A stretch of 64,000 bases of DNA, taken from positions 8,990 through 72,989 of the forward strand of contig CAZAJO010000006.1 of assembly GCA_964485575.1 (NCBI GenBank), read 5' to 3'. A program made the translations under genes and the position numbers. The notes below the pieces were generated by a model. That model did not search any database, was not told the DNA's origin, and saw only the letters and a program-made list of their open reading frames with translations. Source of the DNA: an uncultured Gammaproteobacteria bacterium (lineage in GTDB: Bacteria; Patescibacteriota; Microgenomatia; Levybacterales; GWA1-39-11). Numbering within the stretch: position 1 is the first letter of the stretch; each line of letters starts with the position of its first letter. This document shows positions 35,505-47,311 of the stretch, in pieces.

Positions 35505-36548
35505 TTATGCGGCAAGTGGAAAATATGGAGATAGGTCCAAAACTACTTTACCGGACTGCCATGGACTTGCAGCAACTATGCCCCTGTCTGGTCCTAGTCC
35601 ATATTCGTCTTGGAACATATACTCAATTCGGATAGCTTGCGATGTAAAACTTTCAACAGCCTTTCTGACTGTAAATTCGCTAAAATCCTCAGGTATCCCA
35701 AAATCACGATATATTTTTTGTATAACCTCAGGATTAAGTGTTGGAGGAACAACAAGGCCTGGCATTCTTGCCTCAAGAATAGAAGGAGGATTGTCTCCAC
35801 TGAATCGCATTGCTTTTACTTGTCTGTCAAGCGCCCATTGAGCTATAAGCTCATCTTCCTCTTTTCCAATAACCTGAATGTGTTCTCTTTTTCCCATCTC
35901 TTGATACTTTTCTATTATGCCTGAAGCATACATCCTTGTTTTTGGTATGCCTTGAACATCAATATTATGTCTTTCCATATATTCAAATAATTCATCTGGC
36001 TGCATACTTTCAATTTCCGCACGAAGATAACCGCTGTGGATTTGGTTGGTTAGAACTTGCGGTAGTCCTATTAAGATCGTGTCATTGTCTTGTCCCGATG
36101 ACATCTTCCCCAAAAAGTTATGTAATGTTTTCTTGCCTCTGTTTTTTACATCTGTTCTACCTACACCGACATTTTCAAAGTTTTTAACTTTTAAAAATGC
36201 TTCTTCAAGTTCTTCATTGAATTGGTCTCCTTCATTTTTATCATTTGTTGCAGATAACACGAGGTCATATTGAGCCATCGAGTGATCATATGCTACACCA
36301 ATGGTATTTGCATTTTCCCGTGCGCAGGCAATCACTTGAGTCATCAAAGTTGTTTTTCCAACCCCTGATGACCCAAAATATCCAAGTCTTTTTCCTTCTA
36401 ATGCCTTTTGAATAAGAAATTTAGGTAAGTCCCTGCCAAATGGTCTGACGTCATAAACTGAAGCCAATACATTATATTTTTCTGGATTTACAACAATTTC
36501 TCCAAGAAGAATCTCTGATTTTGTTTGACCTATTAGCTCTTTACCCAT
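35505..36548 (-). CDS. P-loop NTPase of unknown function
   Basis: Walker A GYFGSSGVGKTTL. No further assignable domains. Confidence 0.5.
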   Translation of the reverse strand: MGKELIGQTKSEILLGEIVVNPEKYNVLASVYDVRPFGRDLPKFLIQKALEGKRLGYFGSSGVGKTTLMTQVIACARENANTIGVAYDHSMAQYDLVLSATNDKNEGDQFNEELEEAFLKVKNFENVGVGRTDVKNRGKKTLHNFLGKMSSGQDNDTILIGLPQVLTNQIHSGYLRAEIESMQPDELFEYMERHNIDVQGIPKTRMYASGIIEKYQEMGKREHIQVIGKEEDELIAQWALDRQVKAMRFSGDNPPSILEARMPGLVVPPTLNPEVIQKIYRDFGIPEDFSEFTVRKAVESFTSQAIRIEYMFQDEYGLGPDRGIVAASPWQSGKVVLDLSPYFPLAA

Positions 36549-37721
36549 ACAGCTTTTTCGGCAGTTTTATTGTCATAATGGTTCCCTTATTTAGTCTGGA
36601 ATATATTTCTATAGTTCCTTTATGTTTGTCAATAATTCCCTTCACGATGTAAAGCCCCAGTCCCATACCTTCTTTTCTATTACCCTTTGCTTTGAAGAAC
36701 TCATGAAAGACTTTATTTTGTTCATTTTTGCGTATTCCTTTTCCATAATCAGTAACAGTAATTTTGATGTATTTTCCTTCAGAAACCAAAGCTACAACGA
36801 TAGGAGTAGTTTTTGTTGAAAATTTTGCTGCATTATTGAGAAGATTTGTAAAAACTTGTTGTAACTTTTCTGTGTCTCCCTGTATCATTCTTGATTTTAG
36901 ATTGAGGTCATTTCCAAAAAAACTTTGTATCCAGGGTAACTGAATCTAAAATTTATGACCGCTCTTTTAATGGTTTTTAGAATATTTATTTCCTTCCAGC
37001 GGTACGATAGTTGACCAGTCTTTACTTGATCTATAGCAAGAAGTTCATTGAGCATGTGCTTTAGCCTTTTTATCTCCTGTGTCAGAACCTCAACTGATTT
37101 TTCTGATGGGAATTGCTTGCTATTTATTTTTTTTGCGATAAGGTCAGCGTAAGCAGATATGGTTGTTAACGGTGTTTTTAACTCGTGGGAAGCAAGCGAG
37201 ATGAAAAGATCTCTCTCCTCCACCGACTCCATTGTTTTTTCGTAAAGTTGCGAATTTCGGATACCAAGACTTATGAGTGATCCAAAGAGATTGATGACAT
37301 TAATAGTTCTTTTGTCCATTATCTGTGGTATTTTAGACTGTAGAGTCATTACGCCAATTGTTTCATGGTTGAAGCTTAGGGGAATAATAATGAGTGATCT
37401 TACTCCGACATCATAAAGTTCCTTGTGAATTTTCTTTAAAGTTTGCTCAGTTATTATATATAGTTTTCCATTGATAAATGATTTGTGGGAATATCCTTTC
37501 TCACGCGGTTCTACTTGTCTTTTTGGTGGAACATTGGTGTAAACCCTTACCAATTCTCCGTCTTTGCCACCTAAAAATATTGATCCATAATCAGCTCCTG
37601 CTACTTTTCCTGCTTCTGAGACTGCAATCTTAAATCGATCCTCAAGATTCAAGGGTTCAAGAAATGAAAGCGTTGAATGATAGAGACGGGTCAGAATCTC
37701 ACTGTCTGCAAAGTCTCTCAT
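36541..37721 (-). pseudogene. GAF-sensor histidine kinase disrupted by a frameshift in an A7/T7 homopolymer (36916-36922)
   Basis: ORF 36897-37721 encodes GAF + HisKA (LASHELKTPLTTI). ORF 36541-36888 encodes the HATPase_c N/G boxes (NLLNNAAKFS, DYGKGI, GMGLGLYIV). Adding one T in the T7 run (minus strand) joins them into ..YKVFFGNDLNLKSRMIQGDTEKLQQVF.., a canonical kinase. Confidence 0.65.
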
Positions 37722-38953: not shown

Positions 38954-39547
38954 CTAAGATTGTTCCTGATCGACTTTAAAGAAGAACGCCTGCTCTTCCA
39001 TCGCTCCGAGTGGTGTTTCTGTGTATGTTCGTACACCTGTTGCTCTTTGCGCTCGAGAAACTTCCAAACCAATTCTCATATTTCGCTCAAACGCTTCGTC
39101 CGTACTTATTCTATGCTTGTTACTGATACGCATAAGGAGATTTGTTGCTTCTCCACCCATATTTAAAACATGCGTTGCAGCATTCATTTTTTTTGCCTCC
39201 TCAGATAAATAATACTCAGGAGCCATGTAATCAATTGGCTTTTTGAATCCTAATCCGTCTCTTAGCACCATCGTTGTGTCATCGTATAATTCGTATAGAG
39301 CAGCCCCCAAGAGATTACAGCAAGCAACAAAAGTTCTTCTGTCAGTATTTCTGGCTTTTGCTTCTTCTTCTAACGCATCAAACAGCGAGGGATCATAAAC
39401 TCCAACCTTTATTTTCTGCACTTCAAAGGCAGGTAAAAAATCAGGGACTTCGAAAGTTGCTGGCTTCCCATCAAATGTTTCGTGTGGCTCCATTTCAGGC
39501 ATAAGGTTGATATTATAGGGCCATTTTGATTTTTTGACAATACGCAA
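38954..39547 (-). CDS. hypothetical protein
   Basis: 197 aa, no motif recognised. Confidence 0.45.
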   Translation of the reverse strand: MRIVKKSKWPYNINLMPEMEPHETFDGKPATFEVPDFLPAFEVQKIKVGVYDPSLFDALEEEAKARNTDRRTFVACCNLLGAALYELYDDTTMVLRDGLGFKKPIDYMAPEYYLSEEAKKMNAATHVLNMGGEATNLLMRISNKHRISTDEAFERNMRIGLEVSRAQRATGVRTYTETPLGAMEEQAFFFKVDQEQS

Positions 39548-39583: not shown

Positions 39584-40798
39584 TCAATTAAGATTAATAC
39601 TGTCAGCTAAGTCTCCTAGAAGTTCTTTTTCAGACTTGAGTAGTTGTATAGAATTATAAAAAAGTTCCTCTGGGCTTTCGGGTACCTGTAATTTACCTAA
39701 ATTCACTTCGTGATCACGTTCCAGCTGTGCTACAGGCTCACCAAAAGTTCCGTCTGGGTTCCTTGATGGCATGTAAGACGGGTCTGTCGAATACCCCAGA
39801 GCACCAAACCAGTTGAGATTTGCTTTACCATTTTTTTCACTAGCTTCAAGTTCTCGCCTCTTAAGAGACATCAATATTCTAAGTCCACTCCATTTGTTAA
39901 ATTCATTTGCAGAGATATGTTCATTCTGATGATCAACTTTTTCAACAGGACTTTTTCTTGGACTTTGCCAAGGTATACAACCAAAACTGAACAGATTTTC
40001 CACATCCGAGCCAACAAGTGAATATTCAGCCATTGCCATAGAGACATAATTAACTGCAGCATTAAATCTATTCACATTGCCCCGTTCAGTTATAGGTCTA
40101 TCTGCAACCTTTTTCTTGAGCTCACTTGCACTATGGGCAATATCGTACAGCAAACCGAACTCCTCGGGCCAAATCATTCTCTGTAAACTGTGATGTACCA
40201 CATCATGTATATCAGTTGCTGGTATGTAACCCTTTGCCATCAGGGCGTAAAAAGAGTCGGGCATTATCATAAAATTAGTTGGCTTTTCACCATTTACGGT
40301 AGGGCTTACCATTTTTTGGCTCTTTGCCTGTGTAAGGAAATCACCAATATTTGCCTCATTAAAAAATAAGGCTCCTAAGCGGGATGTAAATTTTTCCCTG
40401 AAATCCTTAGGTGCTTTGATTTCACCACTGAGTAATCCTGAAGCTGTAATTATCAAGCCTGGGATATGCATTTGAGATGAATTTACAACTTCGCTGTTAA
40501 CTCCTGTCGTAGTTGTTCCCGAAATCGACTCTTTAATAAATAAAGGTAACTCAGCTTGTTCAGGGTCATCGTGTGTATGTATAGTTGAAGTTACGTCAAT
40601 GGTTAGCCCTTTTTTGCCATTAAGCACTGCGTTATCTGCAGCTACTGTTAAATAACCGTTTTCTATGCATTGCTCGCGAAAAGGACTTGTCCTGTATTCA
40701 AAAACGAACTGTTCACCTAATTTGGTGAGAGCATCAATCTCGTTTTCCCTCGATCTCCATACCGCCCACTCTTCCATTGGTTTGTTTGTCTCACGCAT
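39584..40798 (-). CDS. hypothetical protein
   Basis: 404 aa, no motif recognised. Divergent from the STAND gene. Confidence 0.45.
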   Translation of the reverse strand: MRETNKPMEEWAVWRSRENEIDALTKLGEQFVFEYRTSPFREQCIENGYLTVAADNAVLNGKKGLTIDVTSTIHTHDDPEQAELPLFIKESISGTTTTGVNSEVVNSSQMHIPGLIITASGLLSGEIKAPKDFREKFTSRLGALFFNEANIGDFLTQAKSQKMVSPTVNGEKPTNFMIMPDSFYALMAKGYIPATDIHDVVHHSLQRMIWPEEFGLLYDIAHSASELKKKVADRPITERGNVNRFNAAVNYVSMAMAEYSLVGSDVENLFSFGCIPWQSPRKSPVEKVDHQNEHISANEFNKWSGLRILMSLKRRELEASEKNGKANLNWFGALGYSTDPSYMPSRNPDGTFGEPVAQLERDHEVNLGKLQVPESPEELFYNSIQLLKSEKELLGDLADSINLN

Positions 40799-40861
40799 AT
40801 AAAAGGATTATAATACCTTAATTGTCAGAATATCTGACAATTTCGTATATATAATTCTTTT

Positions 40862-43114
40862 ATGAACTTGTCACAGAAAAACAAATTTTCTTACTTATTC
40901 CGAAAGTACCGATTAAAGTCAGAATTTGAAACTCTCTCAGATTTCGGAAATGCACTTGCAGAAAAAGGTAGAATATACGAAGATAGTCTTTTTTCGCACT
41001 GGCAAAAAGGGTCTCGTGTACCAAGTGACCGTACCTTGCTACTTAAAATCATATCCTTATTTTCCGAGCTTCATGGCATTAACTCAATAGCAGAGTCAAA
41101 TGAATTTCTTGAGGCCGCTGGACTTTCTGCATTAACCACAGAAGAGATAGATCAATTGCCTGAGAATATAAAGGATATAGCTCCTTTTTTAGCTCCTAAT
41201 AAAATCGTAAATTATATTCAACGAAAAGAAATTCAAAAAAACTCTCGAGAAGCATTGGATTCACTACATATCCTAATACTTTCAGGAAGACCAGGGTCTG
41301 GGAAGTCTGCTTTAGCAATAGAAATGGCCCACGAGTATGCAGCCAGTTATCCAGATGGAGTTTTGTGGTTTCGCGCTGATACAACAACAGCTATGGACAT
41401 CTTAATGGCAATAAGTTTGATTTATAAGAAAGATGTTGCTCATATTAATAATCTTGAGGCTCGAGCTGCTTATGTTAGGTCATTTATGAAAGATAAAAAG
41501 GTCCTCTATATATTTGATAATGTAGAAACAGACTTTGACCATTCCCTATTAATACCCAATCTTGAAAAAAATGCCGTCATTCTAACGACAACAAGCCCTG
41601 AACTTTCAGGTTTTAAAAAGTCATCTATTATTACAGCTTCTCAATTTAACATTTCTGAAACCGAAGAACTTTTTGAATTAATATTAGGGAGCAAAAGTTT
41701 TGAGTTAGTCCGAAATCAACTGCTTGAGATTGCAGAACTCGTTGATTATTTGCCTCTGGCTATTCAAATAATTGCAAGACAGATCGCTGCTAAGAAATAT
41801 AGCACATTAGAAATTATTGAATATTTAAAGAACGATAGCTTTGAACTGAAGCAACTAAAGTATGAGAACAAAGATTTACAATCGACTCTTGAGGCAAGTT
41901 TTAAAAAACTTAATAAAAATGTGGCAACAGTTCTGCTCTCCTTATCTGTTTTTTCTGGTAAAGACTTCTCGTTAGAGGCTGCGATTTCATTACATAATTA
42001 CTCAAGATCACAGATAAAAAACTACTTACTGGAACTTGTTGATAATTCGTTAATTGAAATTTCTTCTGACTCAAGATATAGGCTCAACCCCTTTATCTTG
42101 CGTTTTATTAGAGAAAAGAATACTAATCTCGAGATTTATACAAAAGCAGCCGAGTATTACACTTCTTTATTTAATAATATCAAGGAAGCAGAAATAGAAC
42201 ACCAGATCCTTGTGTACGAGCAAGATAATATTTCCGGGGTTTTAACCCAATGCTTTCAGAACGAACAGTACGCTTTCGTATGCAAATTATTTAAGAATTT
42301 TGGTGTATTTCTGTGGGAAACAGGTCAATGGGAAAAGCTGAAAAATTTTGCTTTCTTAGCTTATAAAAGTGCCAGTAAAATAAATGACAATCAAAGTAGG
42401 ATGCTTATTTGCAACAGAGAACTCAGCTGGGTTTATTATTGGACTGGTGATATTAAGTTGTCCTTAAAGTATACACTTGAGGCAAATAAACTTGCAGCTG
42501 AGCTTAATGACCGCTACTACACAGCTTATACTGAAGAAAGGCTGTCTAAAATCTATCAAGGCATGCGAAGATATGAAGAATCGATTTCTTTAGCTCTTTC
42601 ATCTTTGGCTTACTTTGAGGAAATACACGATTCTTTAAGAATTTCAAATAATTTGCGTCACTTGGGAGAAACTTATTTGATGCTGGGTGATTATATGGTT
42701 GCAAAAGAGTATATCCAGAAATCAAGGGATGCCCTTAAAAAGGTGAAAAATAGGAGGGTTCGGCTGATTCAAGAATGTGTATCTTTGACAGAACTTGCAG
42801 CTATCTTCTATCTTGAGAACAACTTTGAAAGGGCTAAAGAGTTGTTTATGGAAAGTGAAGAAATGGAAGAAAGCATTAAAAGCTTTACTCTTAATCGGAT
42901 TTGGATTAATATTGTGCTCGGATTGATATATGAATCAAAAGAAGATGTGTTTAATGCAAAACAGAAGTTCAGGCTAGCAGAAGATGCATGTATATATCTA
43001 GGGATGAGACGTAACATCTCGGAGATAAGCCCTATTTTGGCTGCTTTGAAGAAGCAACTTGCAAATAGCACTATTTACCAACAGTCGCCTTTTTTGACAT
43101 ACATGAAAAATTAA
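40862..43114 (+). CDS. STAND-class NTPase: N-terminal XRE-like HTH, NB-ARC/AAA ATPase core, C-terminal TPR repeats
   Basis: HTH-like LSDFGNALAEKGRIYEDSLFSHWQKGSRVPSDRTLLLKI. Walker A ILSGRPGSGKSALAIEMA, Walker B VLYIFDNVE, arm ..LPLAIQIIARQIA. Then about 350 aa of TPR-like repeats. Confidence 0.7.
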   Translation: MNLSQKNKFSYLFRKYRLKSEFETLSDFGNALAEKGRIYEDSLFSHWQKGSRVPSDRTLLLKIISLFSELHGINSIAESNEFLEAAGLSALTTEEIDQLPENIKDIAPFLAPNKIVNYIQRKEIQKNSREALDSLHILILSGRPGSGKSALAIEMAHEYAASYPDGVLWFRADTTTAMDILMAISLIYKKDVAHINNLEARAAYVRSFMKDKKVLYIFDNVETDFDHSLLIPNLEKNAVILTTTSPELSGFKKSSIITASQFNISETEELFELILGSKSFELVRNQLLEIAELVDYLPLAIQIIARQIAAKKYSTLEIIEYLKNDSFELKQLKYENKDLQSTLEASFKKLNKNVATVLLSLSVFSGKDFSLEAAISLHNYSRSQIKNYLLELVDNSLIEISSDSRYRLNPFILRFIREKNTNLEIYTKAAEYYTSLFNNIKEAEIEHQILVYEQDNISGVLTQCFQNEQYAFVCKLFKNFGVFLWETGQWEKLKNFAFLAYKSASKINDNQSRMLICNRELSWVYYWTGDIKLSLKYTLEANKLAAELNDRYYTAYTEERLSKIYQGMRRYEESISLALSSLAYFEEIHDSLRISNNLRHLGETYLMLGDYMVAKEYIQKSRDALKKVKNRRVRLIQECVSLTELAAIFYLENNFERAKELFMESEEMEESIKSFTLNRIWINIVLGLIYESKEDVFNAKQKFRLAEDACIYLGMRRNISEISPILAALKKQLANSTIYQQSPFLTYMKN

Positions 43115-43115
43115 T

Positions 43116-43667
43116 ATGAAGGAAGTAGAAATAAAAGCAAAATTAAATGGTATGCATGATAGTCCTGAGTCGATTGAAGCAAGGACCGGCTTGCGTTGGG
43201 AAGAATCTGTCGACCAGAAAGACACAATTTTTCTTCCTGTAGGTATGGATTTTGGTAATTTAACTGATGGTTCACCAGTTTTCCGCCTGAGAGAAGTTGA
43301 TGGGGCCACAATTCTAACTCTTAAAATCTCTTCAGCAGACGCTTCGGAAAGAGCCGAAGAAGAGATATTGGTTGATGATAGTTCTAAGACTAGAAGGATA
43401 GTTGAGTTGTTAGGATTTTCAGAGGCTATAACAATAGAAAAAAGAAGAAGAAAAATGAATTTCGGAGAGTATCTGCTCTTTTTTGATGATGTTCAGGATC
43501 TAGGACAGTTCTTGGAAATTGAAAAGTTGGTTGATGACAATGTAGACGCAGGGCCGATAAAGGAGGATATGATCGCAAGTCTTCAAGCTCTTGGGCTGGA
43601 AGACTTAACAGTTGTGAACAGATCTTACGACGCTCTCCTGTATCAGGCTCGTACTTATAATTCTTAA
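43116..43667 (+). CDS. CYTH domain protein (class IV adenylyl cyclase/CyaB-thiamine triphosphatase fold)
   Basis: Starts MKEVEIKAKL (the EIEIK-type CYTH N-terminal motif). About 180 aa with conserved acidic/basic residues (RLRE, EIEK). ATG overlaps the upstream stop as aTAAtATG. Confidence 0.55.
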   Translation: MKEVEIKAKLNGMHDSPESIEARTGLRWEESVDQKDTIFLPVGMDFGNLTDGSPVFRLREVDGATILTLKISSADASERAEEEILVDDSSKTRRIVELLGFSEAITIEKRRRKMNFGEYLLFFDDVQDLGQFLEIEKLVDDNVDAGPIKEDMIASLQALGLEDLTVVNRSYDALLYQARTYNS

Positions 43668-43675
43668 CTTTCATT

Positions 43676-44257
43676 ATGAAAAAAAAATTAGTAATTTTAT
43701 TTGGACCCTCCGGAGTGGGGAAAAGCAGTTTGATCGGACAAATTACAAAGCTCGAACCAAGAATTAAGGCCGTTATTCCTTTTACTGATAGGCCCAAAAG
43801 GCAAGGCGAATTTTCCAGAAGGAGTATCTCGAGAAAAGACTTCGATCAGTTAGAATCAAAAGCTCAATATATTATCGCAAAGAATATATATGGATATCGA
43901 TACGCAACAAACAAGACAGAGATAAATAGTCTTATAAAAAAAGGTGTAGTGCCAGTCATCGATTTTCCATTGGACAGAGTGGATTTCTTATCAGATTTTA
44001 AAAAAGACGTTTGTGGGATTTACATTGCTCCACCCTCTCTTGCCGTTCTAAAGAGTCGATTGCGTAAGGATGGAAGAGATGTCGATTTGAAAAGGTTTGA
44101 AGAAGGAAAGCTTGAGCTTTCAAAGTTGAAGCAAATGGAATTTAAGCACCCATACATAAGTGCAGTTGTGGTTAATAGTGATCTTGAAAAACAAAGTAAA
44201 GAACTTCTTTCAATTATCTACGAAAATACTAATCTTTCCAAAAAGGAAATTCTGTAG
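43676..44257 (+). CDS. guanylate kinase-like P-loop nucleotide kinase
   Basis: GPSGVGKSSL (P-loop), FTDRPKRQGE (TTRxxRxGE-like NMP-binding motif), YGYRYA, VVPVIDF. Confidence 0.55.
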   Translation: MKKKLVILFGPSGVGKSSLIGQITKLEPRIKAVIPFTDRPKRQGEFSRRSISRKDFDQLESKAQYIIAKNIYGYRYATNKTEINSLIKKGVVPVIDFPLDRVDFLSDFKKDVCGIYIAPPSLAVLKSRLRKDGRDVDLKRFEEGKLELSKLKQMEFKHPYISAVVVNSDLEKQSKELLSIIYENTNLSKKEIL

Positions 44258-44453
44258 TTTTAATCCTTCATAAATATTTATTTCCTATTTTAGTCATGTT
44301 TGATGACAATTTATATAGAAGTGATATATTGCAACAAAAATTTTCACGCAGTGTAATGATAATGATTCTTTGGCAGGACTCTACAAATTGCCCCTCTGTA
44401 CAGTCCAATATTAATAACTTTTCGATTCTAACTTTTGTCTGCCCGAAGACTAA

Positions 44454-44478
44454 CAGCTCAGGCAGAGCTGTTTTTTTT
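44454..44478 (+). terminator. rho-independent terminator-like hairpin CAGCTC-aggca-GAGCTG + T8 in the 5' leader of the tasA-like gene
   Basis: Perfect 6-bp stem plus TTTTTTTT, 200 nt downstream of the previous stop and 33 nt upstream of a strong AAAGGAGG SD and the ATG at 44512. Terminator or attenuator. Confidence 0.55.
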
Positions 44479-44511
44479 GTAGGCTTACTATACGAAAGGA
44501 GGTGAATATAT

Positions 44512-45060
44512 ATGAATAAAAAAATAATGATGAGCGGACTTTCAATAATTTCAGCTCTCACACTTTTAGGAGGCACAGCTTTCGCTGCATTTACTACACA
44601 AGCAACAGCTACTGGTAATACTTTTTCAACCGACAATCCTGCACTTCTGATTTCCTCAGACAGCGCAAATTATTTTGGTGATATTGTAAATCCATTTAAT
44701 GATGCCAATATTGTCCCAGGGTATGAAAGAACTTTTACTTTCTACCTAAAAAACACAGGTAATTCTGCACTTGATGTAAATGCACATTTTACTGGAGTTG
44801 CAGATATTCTTGATAACGTTTTAGTAACTGATTTTGACTGTAGTAATGCTGCAGATCCAAGTGCTTTTAGTGTTACATCCATGAAAGGCGGGTCTGTTAG
44901 TTTGGGAACTATCCAACCTGGAGCACCAAATGCGCTAACATGTCATGTAAAGGTTACACTACCTGTTTCAGTTGACGATACTTATAAAAATAGAACATCT
45001 GTTTTTACAGTTGAATTTAATGGAACAACGGTAGCTCCATCACCTATTCCTGCACCTTAG
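44512..45060 (+). CDS. TasA/camelysin-like secreted protein with SipW-cognate signal peptide
   Basis: MNKKIMMSGLSIISALTLLGGTAFAAFTTQATATGNTFST matches the SipW-dependent signal consensus (..GGTfAyFtd..tNtF). IVPGYERTFTFYLKNTGNSALDV parallels TasA LKPGDK..F.F.NNGSL. Confidence 0.65.
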   Translation: MNKKIMMSGLSIISALTLLGGTAFAAFTTQATATGNTFSTDNPALLISSDSANYFGDIVNPFNDANIVPGYERTFTFYLKNTGNSALDVNAHFTGVADILDNVLVTDFDCSNAADPSAFSVTSMKGGSVSLGTIQPGAPNALTCHVKVTLPVSVDDTYKNRTSVFTVEFNGTTVAPSPIPAP

Positions 45061-45070
45061 TTTTTCGTCT

Positions 45071-45099
45071 GGTGGTGGGAGACTGCCTTTCCCGCCACC
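45071..45099 (+). other. GC-rich stem-loop (GGTGGTGGG-N11-CCCGCCACC) between tasA-like and sipW
   Basis: 9-bp stem with one GU in an AT-rich background. Possible processing or attenuation site. Confidence 0.35.
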
Positions 45100-45124
45100 G
45101 ACACCGGTAAGAAAATAAATACAT

Positions 45125-45676
45125 ATGAAAACGTTCAAACAAATATCAAATATACTACTAGCTGTTTTTATATTCAGTCTGGTTCCAATAGTTTTATTTA
45201 TATTTGTTACTTCAAGATCACCAATACTATTTGGAATTCGTTCTTATGTTGTAGTTACGGGAAGTATGACTCCAGCACTGCCTATAGGAAGTATGGTATT
45301 TACCTATCCAAAAGCTACCTACAATATCGGTGAGATCATAACTTTTAAAAGAGGAAATATCACAATTACACACAGAATCAATGATGTAAAAGACGGGAAC
45401 TATATTACAAAAGGGGATGCAAATAGCTCTACCGACACTCAAATTGTCAGTAAATCCGATATAATTGGTCACGATGTAGCTGTTGTTCCTTTCATCGGAA
45501 GACTGACAGGATTTATCAAAACACCAATCGGGTTTGGGTTACTTTTGGGTATCCCAACTCTACTTTTTGTCTTTTTTGAAGCATGGCAGATGAAAAAGGA
45601 GTGGGAAAAGATAATTGAAAAAAGAGTTAGAGACAACCTTACTACAATAAATCCATTTCATGAATTAAAATTATGA
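45125..45676 (+). CDS. sipW: signal peptidase I, archaeal/ER-type (SipW)
   Basis: N-terminal TM, VVVTGSMTPALPIGSMVF (catalytic Ser box), ITHRI (catalytic His), KGDANSSTD, C-terminal TM. This is the S26B/SipW architecture. Confidence 0.8.
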   Translation: MKTFKQISNILLAVFIFSLVPIVLFIFVTSRSPILFGIRSYVVVTGSMTPALPIGSMVFTYPKATYNIGEIITFKRGNITITHRINDVKDGNYITKGDANSSTDTQIVSKSDIIGHDVAVVPFIGRLTGFIKTPIGFGLLLGIPTLLFVFFEAWQMKKEWEKIIEKRVRDNLTTINPFHELKL

Positions 45677-46158
45677 ATAAGAAGCGAGGACTGATAGGAC
45701 TGTCATTGTTAGTAGCTTTTTGTCTCACTTTGGTAAGTACTTCTTTTGCAAAGTTTACGACATCTGCCACGGCAACAAATAATACATTTTCAACAGCTCT
45801 TGTCTTTGGTACTCCAACCCCCTCAGTATCACCTTCGCCTACTGTAGTCCCTACAACAACACCAACTCCTACTGTGACACCATCTGCTACTCCAACGCCT
45901 ACTGGAACAGGATGCACAAATAACGTTGTCGTTACAGGAGGAGGTACAGGTTCTAATACTTCAGCGACGGTAATTTGCGAAAATAACTCAACTACTACTC
46001 AAACCAACAATACAACTACGAATACTAATATTGATACAAGCTCAAACACTGGGGGAAATACTCAGAATGGAAATACAGGTGGGACAAATACAACAACAAG
46101 TGGTTCTTCAAATACGGTGACAGTTACAACATCCGGGTCCTCAAACACTACGCATTAA
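45673..46158 (+). CDS. second SipW-cognate-signal secreted protein, Thr/Pro/Ser/Asn-rich
   Basis: LVSTSFAKFTTSATATNNTFSTA repeats the cognate signal consensus. The remainder is low-complexity TPT/NTT with two Cys. Confidence 0.55.
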   Translation: MNKKRGLIGLSLLVAFCLTLVSTSFAKFTTSATATNNTFSTALVFGTPTPSVSPSPTVVPTTTPTPTVTPSATPTPTGTGCTNNVVVTGGGTGSNTSATVICENNSTTTQTNNTTTNTNIDTSSNTGGNTQNGNTGGTNTTTSGSSNTVTVTTSGSSNTTH

Positions 46159-46688
46159 CTAACAGGAAGAGCTACAACTACAAATCTTTTTGAATCCAAA
46201 AATCCGGTACAGGTGTAGATAGTGACTCTACTGTCTTTTGTGTTGTCAATTATGTATGTCTGTGATGGATCAACAGTTGCTGTATATTCAACCTTGAACT
46301 CCTTTTTTACACCGTCATTCATCGTGATCCATATCTTTTGACCAGGCTTTACCTGTGGAAGATTTCCTAAAATACTTTTCCAGTTGTGACCATATATCAC
46401 GCTGTTCCCTTTACTTCCTGGCAAAGGAGTTGATTTAAGGTACGAAACACCATTACTTGTCGTTTCCCAAGATTTACCATGAATTGATGCTGGTACTATA
46501 GCTAAATTAGCTTTAATTGATGGGATTTCAATAGATTTTGGGAATTGTCCACCAGTATTTTGGATAACTTGAGGCTTTGCCTTGAAGGTTAGTGGATTTG
46601 AAAAGTTTCTTTGATACAGCAAATAAGCGGCAAAAGCCAAAAAACAGACTCCTACTATCAGAAATAACTTGGAAAAAAAGTTTTGCAT
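46155..46688 (-). CDS. sortase (membrane anchored)
   Basis: N-terminal TM, NSVIYGHNW (catalytic His box), TIYTCTG (TLxTC catalytic Cys), conserved Arg near the C-terminus. Confidence 0.75.
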   Translation of the reverse strand: MQNFFSKLFLIVGVCFLAFAAYLLYQRNFSNPLTFKAKPQVIQNTGGQFPKSIEIPSIKANLAIVPASIHGKSWETTSNGVSYLKSTPLPGSKGNSVIYGHNWKSILGNLPQVKPGQKIWITMNDGVKKEFKVEYTATVDPSQTYIIDNTKDSRVTIYTCTGFLDSKRFVVVALPVS

Positions 46689-46696
46689 GGTACTAA

Positions 46697-47311
46697 TTAC
46701 TTAGTATTTTTGCGCATGAAGAGGCCAATCAGAGTCATTAATACTCCAGCTCCGAAGACTGAGAGTACAAAAGTAATGTTACCTGTTGAAGCGAGTCCGA
46801 AAGATCCTTTAGCAGCTTGAACGATAGATCCTAGACCATCAGAACGGCCGTCTGTTCTACCATCTGTTCTTCCGTCAGTTCTACCGTCTCCACCACCTGA
46901 AGTAGTAGTTGTTGAATTACATGAATATGAGATGTTTTTAGCAACATATGGTACGTCATCAAGTCCCCATGCAGCACCTGATGGAACATAGATCCATCCT
47001 TGGCTTTCAAGTACGGCAATTTCTTGCTCAGATACTTCGGTCAATCTTTTCCAATTGGTTTGAATTCCAGCTCCATCAGTACCACAAAAACACTGCATTA
47101 ATGTATCTTGGGATAATGTGTAAACGGTATCAGAACCTGAGTGAAGAGCATTGTCTCCGGCGATTCCGTGTTGTCCACTTGGGTAGCTAGCTTTAACAGT
47201 TCCTGTAGGTGTTAAACATGATGCAGGAGTAACTTCTGCTGCCATAGCGGAATTAACTCCGGCTGTGCCGAGAAGAATTGCAGACGTCAATAATATAGAA
47301 TATAACTTCAT
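46697..47311 (-). CDS. sortase substrate surface protein (LAXTG-type sorting signal LASTG + TM + KR tail) with DGRT x4 tandem repeat
   Basis: Signal peptide, Cys-containing domain, TTTSGGGDGRTDGRTDGRTDGRSDG, then ..SFGLASTGNITFVLSVFGAGVLMTLIGLFMRKNTK. Confidence 0.7.
   Translation of the reverse strand: MKLYSILLTSAILLGTAGVNSAMAAEVTPASCLTPTGTVKASYPSGQHGIAGDNALHSGSDTVYTLSQDTLMQCFCGTDGAGIQTNWKRLTEVSEQEIAVLESQGWIYVPSGAAWGLDDVPYVAKNISYSCNSTTTTSGGGDGRTDGRTDGRTDGRSDGLGSIVQAAKGSFGLASTGNITFVLSVFGAGVLMTLIGLFMRKNTK
46836..46883. repeat. four tandem 12-nt repeats encoding (DGRT)4 inside the sortase-substrate CDS
   Basis: ccatcagaacgg/ccgtctgttcta/ccatctgttctt/ccgtcagttcta on the plus strand. Confidence 0.7.

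Follow-up and report, generated by a model that had tools for sequence, protein, structure and literature searches.

A probable STAND-family transcription regulator with a conserved putative operator, encoded ahead of a CYTH-fold protein and a guanylate-kinase-like protein in an uncultured bacterium

A 64,000-nucleotide stretch of contig CAZAJO010000006.1 (GenBank assembly GCA_964485575.1, positions 8,990 to 72,989), referred to here as the window, carries three consecutive genes that encode a STAND protein, a protein of the CYTH fold and a guanylate-kinase-like (GK-like) kinase. The best explanation, which we regard as probable, is that the STAND protein is a transcription factor of the same kind as MalT, AfsR and PH0952 and regulates its own gene, and that the genes of two lineage-specific enzymes are transcribed together with it. 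This explanation was built on the observed domains, the packing of the operon, a conserved putative operator, the lack of co-conservation of the three genes and the state of the active-site residues. The three open reading frames (ORFs) lie where the first-pass annotation of this DNA had placed them, and its assignment of NB-ARC and TPR domains, a CYTH fold and a guanylate kinase fold was upheld by Pfam:

40862-43114, plus strand, STAND gene, ORF of 750 amino acids (aa)
43116-43667, plus strand, CYTH gene, ORF of 183 aa
43676-44257, plus strand, GK-like kinase gene, ORF of 193 aa

The TAA stop codon of the STAND gene at 43112-43114 is followed by a single T at 43115 and then by the ATG of the CYTH gene. 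The two genes are separated by 1 nt and abut without the stop/start overlap that had been described earlier. The gap between the CYTH and kinase genes is 8 nt (43668-43675); the spacing of 9 nt given previously is correct only when counted from the last base of the CYTH stop to the start of the kinase ATG. There is no Shine-Dalgarno sequence before the CYTH start or before the kinase start, and the next gene downstream (44512) carries the Shine-Dalgarno sequence GGAGG. The first plus-strand terminator-like hairpin past the STAND start is located at 44452-44472 and is followed by a T-run. Because of the 1-nt and 8-nt gaps, the missing Shine-Dalgarno sequences and the position of this hairpin, the STAND, CYTH and kinase genes almost certainly form one transcription unit, and a three-gene operon with translational coupling or re-initiation is concluded from the sequence. 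The G+C content of the three genes (0.35-0.37) is near that of the surrounding DNA.

A control region of 63 nt (40799-40861) separates the STAND gene from a divergent gene at 39584-40798. It contains a perfect palindrome, AATTGTCAGA-ATA-TCTGACAATT, at 40820-40842, the center of which (40831) falls nearly in the middle of the intergenic region. The core of the palindrome, TGTCA-N7-TGACA, has one exact copy in the 64-kb window. All eight loci examined for homologues of the STAND protein (L018-L021 and L102-L105) have the same core directly ahead of their first STAND gene, either 20-80 nt before its start or within a mis-called N-terminal extension. Several database entries of the STAND family translate the palindrome as such a spurious extension, for example MTxLSENLT, encoded by CTGTCAGAAAATCTGACA. 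The core was found in 0/97 of the other loci fetched, and an earlier count over 703 kb of background DNA gave none. Across the loci the two arms are constant in sequence and the spacer is variable; because the arms are kept while the spacer varies, the palindrome fits a protein-binding site better than an RNA hairpin. Direct reading of the sequence revealed TATAAT boxes on both strands, each ~18-24 bp from the palindrome center:

40850-40855, plus strand, TATAAT box, 6 nt before the ATG of the STAND gene
40812-40807, minus strand, TATAAT box, 8 nt before the ATG of the divergent gene

A single putative operator may thus serve two near-leaderless divergent promoters. A consensus scan proposed an alternative plus-strand promoter, TTGTCT-17-TATAAT, ending at 40814, with which the putative operator falls just downstream of the transcription start. 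Since the alternative promoter changes the position of the operator relative to the start, the sequence is compatible with either direction of regulation. Perfect copies of the core also occur apart from any STAND gene at L021:1893-1909 and L104:2942-2958, and these may be further regulon targets. Within the window, sites with one mismatch to the core number 7 against 2.6 expected, which chance could account for. One of them, AGTCATGTTTGATGACA at 44292-44308, lies 35 nt past the kinase stop and overlaps the promoter-like sequence ATGACA-16-TATATT.

In the STAND protein, residues 133-348 match the Pfam NB-ARC model (E-value 1.9e-13; 50.7 bits against a cut-off of 23.5) and residues 554-627 match TPR_12 (E-value 9e-12). 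In NCBIfam the core is related to HaaT (E-value 1.3e-34), AfsR (9e-30) and FxSxx_TPR (3.7e-21), all scoring far under their cut-offs. A word-indexed search collected a family of 32 or more relatives, complete or nearly so in length, with 27-39% sequence identity. All are metagenomic and the sole named one comes from a Patescibacteria group bacterium, and the family is probably one of Patescibacteria proteins. The Walker A residues (G142, G145, G147, K148 and S149) and the Walker B aspartate (D219, after VLYIF) are invariant or nearly so among 32 family members, with G145, G147, K148 and D219 fully invariant. The best-conserved part of the family is the first 95 residues, with a mean column identity of 68% compared with 45% for the whole protein, and the pattern FxxLFKKYRLKSEFETLSxFGxALAEKGxxYEDSIFSHWQKGxRxP....

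A full-length AlphaFold2 (AF2) model computed from 32 family sequences has a mean predicted local distance difference test score (pLDDT) of 86.5. From the N-terminus it shows a helical domain, the alpha/beta NTPase core and a helical/winged-helix region, after which ~16 paired helices extend from residue 424 to ~713. The closest PDB structure identified by Foldseek is 6mfv (E-value 2.3e-13). Together with Apaf-1 and CED-4 it spans E-values of 2e-13 to 1e-8, and plant NLRs and Avs3 are also among the best matches. Residues 8-100 modeled alone form a five-helix bundle with a pLDDT of 96.4. Apart from calmodulin-type noise, the Foldseek neighbors of this bundle are nearly all helix-turn-helix (HTH) domains of the lambda-repressor/XRE type, namely EspR, PrgX, SinR, TP901-1 CI, POU-specific domains, DdrO and Stl, although these matches are weak (E-values of 1-7, TM scores of ~0.45-0.5). 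A profile search with the N-terminus against the PDB returned a weak match to a POU-specific domain (E-value 0.13) together with spurious matches to designed TPR proteins. Two distant matches of the STAND search, P0068 and P0073, combine Pfam HTH_3/HTH_31 with NB-ARC and TPR domains. The first-pass annotation described the 750-aa protein as an XRE-like HTH joined to a Walker A/B NB-ARC core and a TPR array. The core and the TPR repeats are confirmed. The XRE-like HTH has no Pfam support, yet is plausible from the confident five-helix model, the XRE-type Foldseek neighbors and the conserved palindrome adjoining the gene.

The neighborhoods examined comprised the eight STAND-relative loci, 80 metagenome loci with CYTH relatives (within 5 kb) and 10 distinct loci with kinase relatives, the last drawn from nine found by a scan of genome contigs and three (L006-L008) found by look-ups of the encoding contigs. 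No CYTH or GK-like gene adjoins the STAND gene in any of the eight STAND-relative loci, the proteins of which share 27-39% identity with that of the window, and their neighborhoods all differ from one another:

L018, genes without assigned function and, by motif reading, an ADP-ribosylglycohydrolase-like gene
L019, FolD
L020, isochorismatase and Macro
L021, Tad pilus genes
L102 and L103, tandem STAND pairs, then arginine or ornithine decarboxylases
L104, HbpS-like and GDPD genes
L105, radical SAM and NUDIX

The gene upstream of the STAND gene is divergent in seven of these eight loci, as it is in the window. The tandem STAND pairs (L102:2665-7334 and L103:3936-8301) are translationally coupled and have the operator at the first gene only; each pair is followed by the arginine or ornithine decarboxylase gene and by a related membrane protein of 265-271 aa. 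Seen from the other two genes the result is the same. A GK-like or STAND-family gene occurs in 0/80 of the CYTH-relative loci, and no STAND gene lies near the kinase relatives, which have a CYTH gene in their vicinity only in L014 (a receiver-domain fusion two genes away) and in L013 (6 kb away). This pair of CYTH and GK-like genes recurs only in near-identical strains of the same organism; the three Logan contigs all begin at 43095 of the window, within the last part of the STAND gene. The earlier proposal of a module had been staked on co-conservation of the three genes, which is absent from the 8, 80 and 10 loci; the trio is a lineage-specific arrangement and not a conserved module.

The architecture of the STAND protein resembles that of PH0952 of Pyrococcus horikoshii (PDB accession number 6mfv), in which a DNA-binding domain, putative in the protein of the window, is followed by a NOD module (NBD-HD-WHD) and TPR repeats, and a like mechanism is expected. 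The authors of its structure predict that PH0952 is a transcription factor, with a DNA-binding effector domain at the N-terminus and TPR repeats as the sensor, and describe it as held in an ADP-bound, doubly autoinhibited state (PMC6468293). Sequence identity between the two proteins is ~16%. They differ in the effector, which looks XRE/lambda-repressor-like in the window and is ArsR-like in PH0952, whereas MalT has a C-terminal LuxR-like domain, and the conserved His of the winged-helix domain (WHD) is absent from the protein of the window (N409). The NB-ARC and TPR core is also related to that of the AfsR/SARP-NB-ARC-TPR regulators, of HaaT and FxSxx TPR proteins and of the XRE-NB-ARC-TPR proteins of Actinobacteria. 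Bacillus GutR is an activator with HTH, NTPase and TPR parts. In contrast to this group as a whole, the N-terminal domain is not recognized by Pfam HTH models, and the family appears to be limited to metagenomic, Patescibacteria-like sequences and has its own candidate operator, TGTCA-N7-TGACA. The STAND protein of the window would be a further member, in a newly delineated family, of the known STAND transcription regulators.

By analogy with MalT, AfsR and PH0952, the 750-aa protein would have an XRE-like DNA-binding domain at its N-terminus, NB-ARC as its nucleotide switch and the TPR repeats as its sensor. At rest it would be a monomer with bound ADP that is kept inhibited by its own TPR domain. 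A ligand or protein caught by the TPR domain would trigger nucleotide exchange and multimerization, and the clustered HTH domains of the multimer would bind the palindrome at 40820-40842. The bound protein would then control its own operon, and probably also the unit that contains the divergent gene. The CYTH and GK-like enzymes would be lineage-specific cargo of the regulator rather than its conserved partners. Because of the N-terminal domain and the conserved putative operator, the sequence indicates that any gating of the enzymes by the STAND protein works through transcription and not through protein activation as in Avs systems.

Several points weigh against this explanation. DNA binding and regulation by the STAND protein are inferred, and so are the sign of that regulation, the inducer and what the two enzymes act on. 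No Pfam HTH model matches residues 1-110 at an E-value of 0.01 or better, and the fold matches of the small N-terminal domain fall short of statistical significance. The palindrome overlaps possible -35/-10 elements, so its conservation could partly reflect promoter structure. Residue 409 (codon 42086-42088) is Asn in the protein of the window and His in 31/32 relatives, where it belongs to an LHP sequence that corresponds to the MHD-like motif of the WHD. In other STAND proteins this His helps to hold ADP in the resting state; its loss might loosen the ADP lock, and the nucleotide switch of this particular protein may be atypical. The tight packing of the CYTH and kinase genes behind the STAND gene would equally fit a partnership at the protein level. 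Finally, the STAND neighborhoods inspected number only eight.

One alternative is a defense system, Avs-like or of another type that acts by abortive infection or nucleotide depletion, in which the STAND protein senses a phage cue and activates the CYTH protein and the kinase as effectors, which might for instance hydrolyze NTPs or make a signaling nucleotide. The NB-ARC and TPR architecture is like that of antiviral STAND proteins, and Avs3, which likewise joins a STAND NTPase to a repeat sensor, is among the structural matches. The two enzymes could act on nucleotides, the genes flanking the trio are ORFans and the surface-protein locus downstream is strain-variable. However, searches with Pfam, NCBIfam and PADLOC detected no nuclease, protease, TIR, SIR2 or pore-forming domain in the STAND protein, which is also much shorter than Avs proteins. 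A putative DNA-binding domain, with an operator candidate found throughout the family, occupies the effector position. PADLOC searches with six proteins of the region yielded only trivial P-loop and TPR similarity, all at E-values of 0.0015 or above, and PHROGs returned only a generic guanylate kinase family. No member of the STAND family was found in the viral contigs of IMG/VR, and a single distant guanylate kinase in a jumbo-phage contig was the only viral relative of the GK-like protein. The trio is not co-conserved, and it is surrounded by two-component system and surface/pilus-type genes that resemble neither a defense island nor a mobile element. A defense system of this type is thus considered quite unlikely, and the earlier suggestion of a defense or nucleotide-signaling module gated by the STAND protein was not borne out, given the lack of a PADLOC model, of co-conservation and of a toxic effector domain.

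Residues 1-171 of the CYTH protein match the Pfam CYTH model (E-value 2.1e-16; 60.7 bits against a cut-off of 23.2). An exhaustive HMMER search identified 1340 representatives at E-values of 1e-3 or better; the best are 36-37% identical, and no relative among 1.8 billion representatives exceeds 37%. In an alignment with 20 relatives all of the invariant columns (17/17) are kept. The tunnel residues E3, E5, K7, R57, R59, K70, E81, E83, K109, R111, D124, E134 and E136 are retained, and from its sequence the enzyme looks active with an intact catalytic tunnel. The fold and the plausible role as an enzyme acting on phosphates or nucleotides, both proposed in the first-pass annotation, are in keeping with these intact active-site residues.

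Whether such a protein could be a genuine adenylate or nucleotidyl cyclase of class IV, so that the operon would make and process a cyclic-nucleotide signal, was also considered. NCBIfam TIGR00318 (cyaB, class IV adenylate cyclase) scores 73.1 bits against a cut-off of 57.95, and the cyclase YpAC-IV is among the PDB sequence matches with an E-value of 2e-8. The best PDB match is nonetheless SaTTM (PDB accession number 7ns8; E-value 2.4e-10), which was likewise annotated as a cyclase and was shown to be a triphosphatase (Vogt et al. 2021). SaTTM (Saci_0718) resembles the CYTH protein in its single domain of ~180 aa, its ExExK motif and the conservation of the Arg, Lys and Glu residues of the tunnel. 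Vogt et al. (2021) also argue that an HFxxxxExExK extension is required in genuine class IV cyclases, and that cyclases have a small residue where the RxR motif carries its center Arg. The protein of the window begins with MKEVEIK, which lacks this extension and leaves no room for HF, and its RxR motif, R57-L-R59, retains the center Arg. Because the HF motif is absent and R57-L-R59 is kept, a triphosphatase is favored over a cyclase, and the protein is most likely a triphosphate-tunnel phosphohydrolase that acts on inorganic triphosphate or an NTP-like substrate. The cyclase option, which the first-pass annotation had left standing, is disfavored, and a cyclic-nucleotide operon appears very improbable indeed. 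The closest named relative, from Falkowbacteria, is also annotated as a class IV adenylate cyclase and stands alone near ribosomal protein genes (L004). The protein of the window differs from such stand-alone CyaB-like and TTM relatives in being co-transcribed with STAND and kinase genes, which is the case for 0/80 relatives. Fusions of CYTH and nucleotide kinase domains are a theme already known from the cited literature, and by that analogy a functional link between the CYTH protein and the kinase is reasonable. As a candidate for such a fusion the longest CYTH match, P0081 (357 aa), was inspected and proved to be a tandem CYTH-CYTH protein.

The kinase matches Pfam Guanylate_kin over its full length (residues 3-182; E-value 4.3e-19). 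The gmk equivalog TIGR03263 scores 85.3 bits against a cut-off of 160.45, and the NCBIfam match to PhnN is weaker still and below the equivalog cut-off. The P-loop GPSGVGKS, R39, R42, Y76, R128 and R140 are kept, all of them invariant in the GK-like family and in canonical Gmk; R134 is invariant within the GK-like family only. As in Gmk and PhnN, the two Arg and the Tyr that contact the acceptor phosphate and the lid arginines are thus present. In contrast to Gmk, the protein has lost the Y-x-F of the GMP site through a deletion of three residues, and it has Ile in place of the Glu of LE(Y/H) and Pro in place of the second Asp of D-x-D; its closest family shares these changes. The lost positions are ones that we take to correspond to Y50, E69 and D100 of yeast Guk1, which hold GMP and read the guanine. 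The kinase is unlikely to be a GMP kinase. Because the guanine-binding residues are lost while the P-loop and the phosphate-binding arginines are kept, it most likely functions as an active P-loop kinase, with an acceptor that bears a phosphate but is not GMP. The description of a guanylate-kinase-like P-loop enzyme thus holds for the fold, the P-loop and the arginines, and fails for the residues that would read guanine.

The nearest relatives of the kinase are 33-39% identical to it and form a distinct family. They are encoded in a conserved cassette of genes for a Zn-ribbon protein, a GTP-cyclohydrolase-II-like protein, an OMP-decarboxylase-like protein and the GK-like protein, often with a NUDIX gene after them (L006:3395-5993, L010:375-3001, L012:7975-10588, L013:7916-10555, L014:3-1767 and L007:89-1027). 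The Zn-ribbon protein has ~125 aa with the pattern KKDRYxRARGG..CxxC..LYQKDG and is fused to the kinase in L007 and L008. The CYTH-receiver fusion in L014 lies two genes downstream of the kinase relative. None of the cassette partners is present in the window. These data bear on the proposal that the adjacency is meaningless and that the CYTH and GK-like genes are housekeeping genes of a reduced genome, the latter perhaps a divergent gmk. Stand-alone CyaB-like CYTH proteins are very common (the 1340 representatives) and occur in unrelated contexts such as the ribosomal protein genes of L004, the partners of the trio are not co-conserved, and the 64-kb window contains no canonical gmk, which makes a housekeeping role possible. 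Against it, the short gaps, the lack of Shine-Dalgarno sequences and of an internal terminator bind expression of both genes to the STAND gene, the kinase is far from the gmk cut-off and without guanine-reading residues, and its nearest relatives are a separate family in a dedicated cassette. We therefore judge the housekeeping proposal unlikely.

Co-transcription under a STAND regulator is the preferred explanation, and it may extend to the genes on the other side of the control region:

39584-40798, divergent from the STAND gene, ORFan (hyp404), no library match
38954-39547, divergent from the STAND gene, ORFan (hyp197), no library match

Neither protein has a match in Pfam, NCBIfam, PADLOC, PHROGs, the PDB or viral contigs, and neither is similar to the products of genes upstream of the STAND homologues. 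The pair shares the 63-nt control region and the palindrome with the STAND gene and may belong to the same regulon. The suggestion that these genes are part of the same island has the shared control region in its favor. A further elaboration would be an inducible STAND switch that senses a nucleotide, polyphosphate or infection cue and controls a four-gene stress or defense regulon consisting of the triphosphatase, the kinase and the two ORFans; we hold this to be highly doubtful. To our knowledge, a nucleotide-remodeling response controlled by a STAND protein at the level of transcription has no described counterpart.

Further upstream are genes for a Transgly_assoc protein, an OmpR-type response regulator and a histidine kinase encoded in two ORFs. 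The latter spans 36541-37721 on the minus strand, with GAF and HisKA domains at 36897-37721 and HATPase_c at 36541-36888, 8 nt apart, and could reflect disruption of the gene, a frameshift introduced by sequencing or a true split. A gene at 35505-36548 (minus strand) encodes a protein of 347 aa with the Walker A motif GSSGVGKT and no family in Pfam, NCBIfam, PADLOC or PHROGs. Downstream of the trio, a surface cluster with TasA-like, SipW-like and sortase genes (44349-47311) varies between strains. A near-identical Logan contig (L001:1256-2313) departs from the window at 44349 and continues with a different TasA-like gene.

If the explanation proposed here is true, the HTH-NB-ARC-TPR protein and TGTCA-N7-TGACA would constitute a sequence-defined pair of regulator and operator for uncultured, probably Patescibacteria organisms, the regulation of which is little known, and regulons would be predictable directly from metagenomes. 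It would also call for caution in assigning an antiphage function to each bacterial STAND protein that is encoded beside nucleotide enzymes. The two enzymes are of biochemical interest, one as a CYTH protein that is labeled a cyclase and is probably a triphosphatase, the other as an enzyme of the guanylate kinase fold without guanine recognition.

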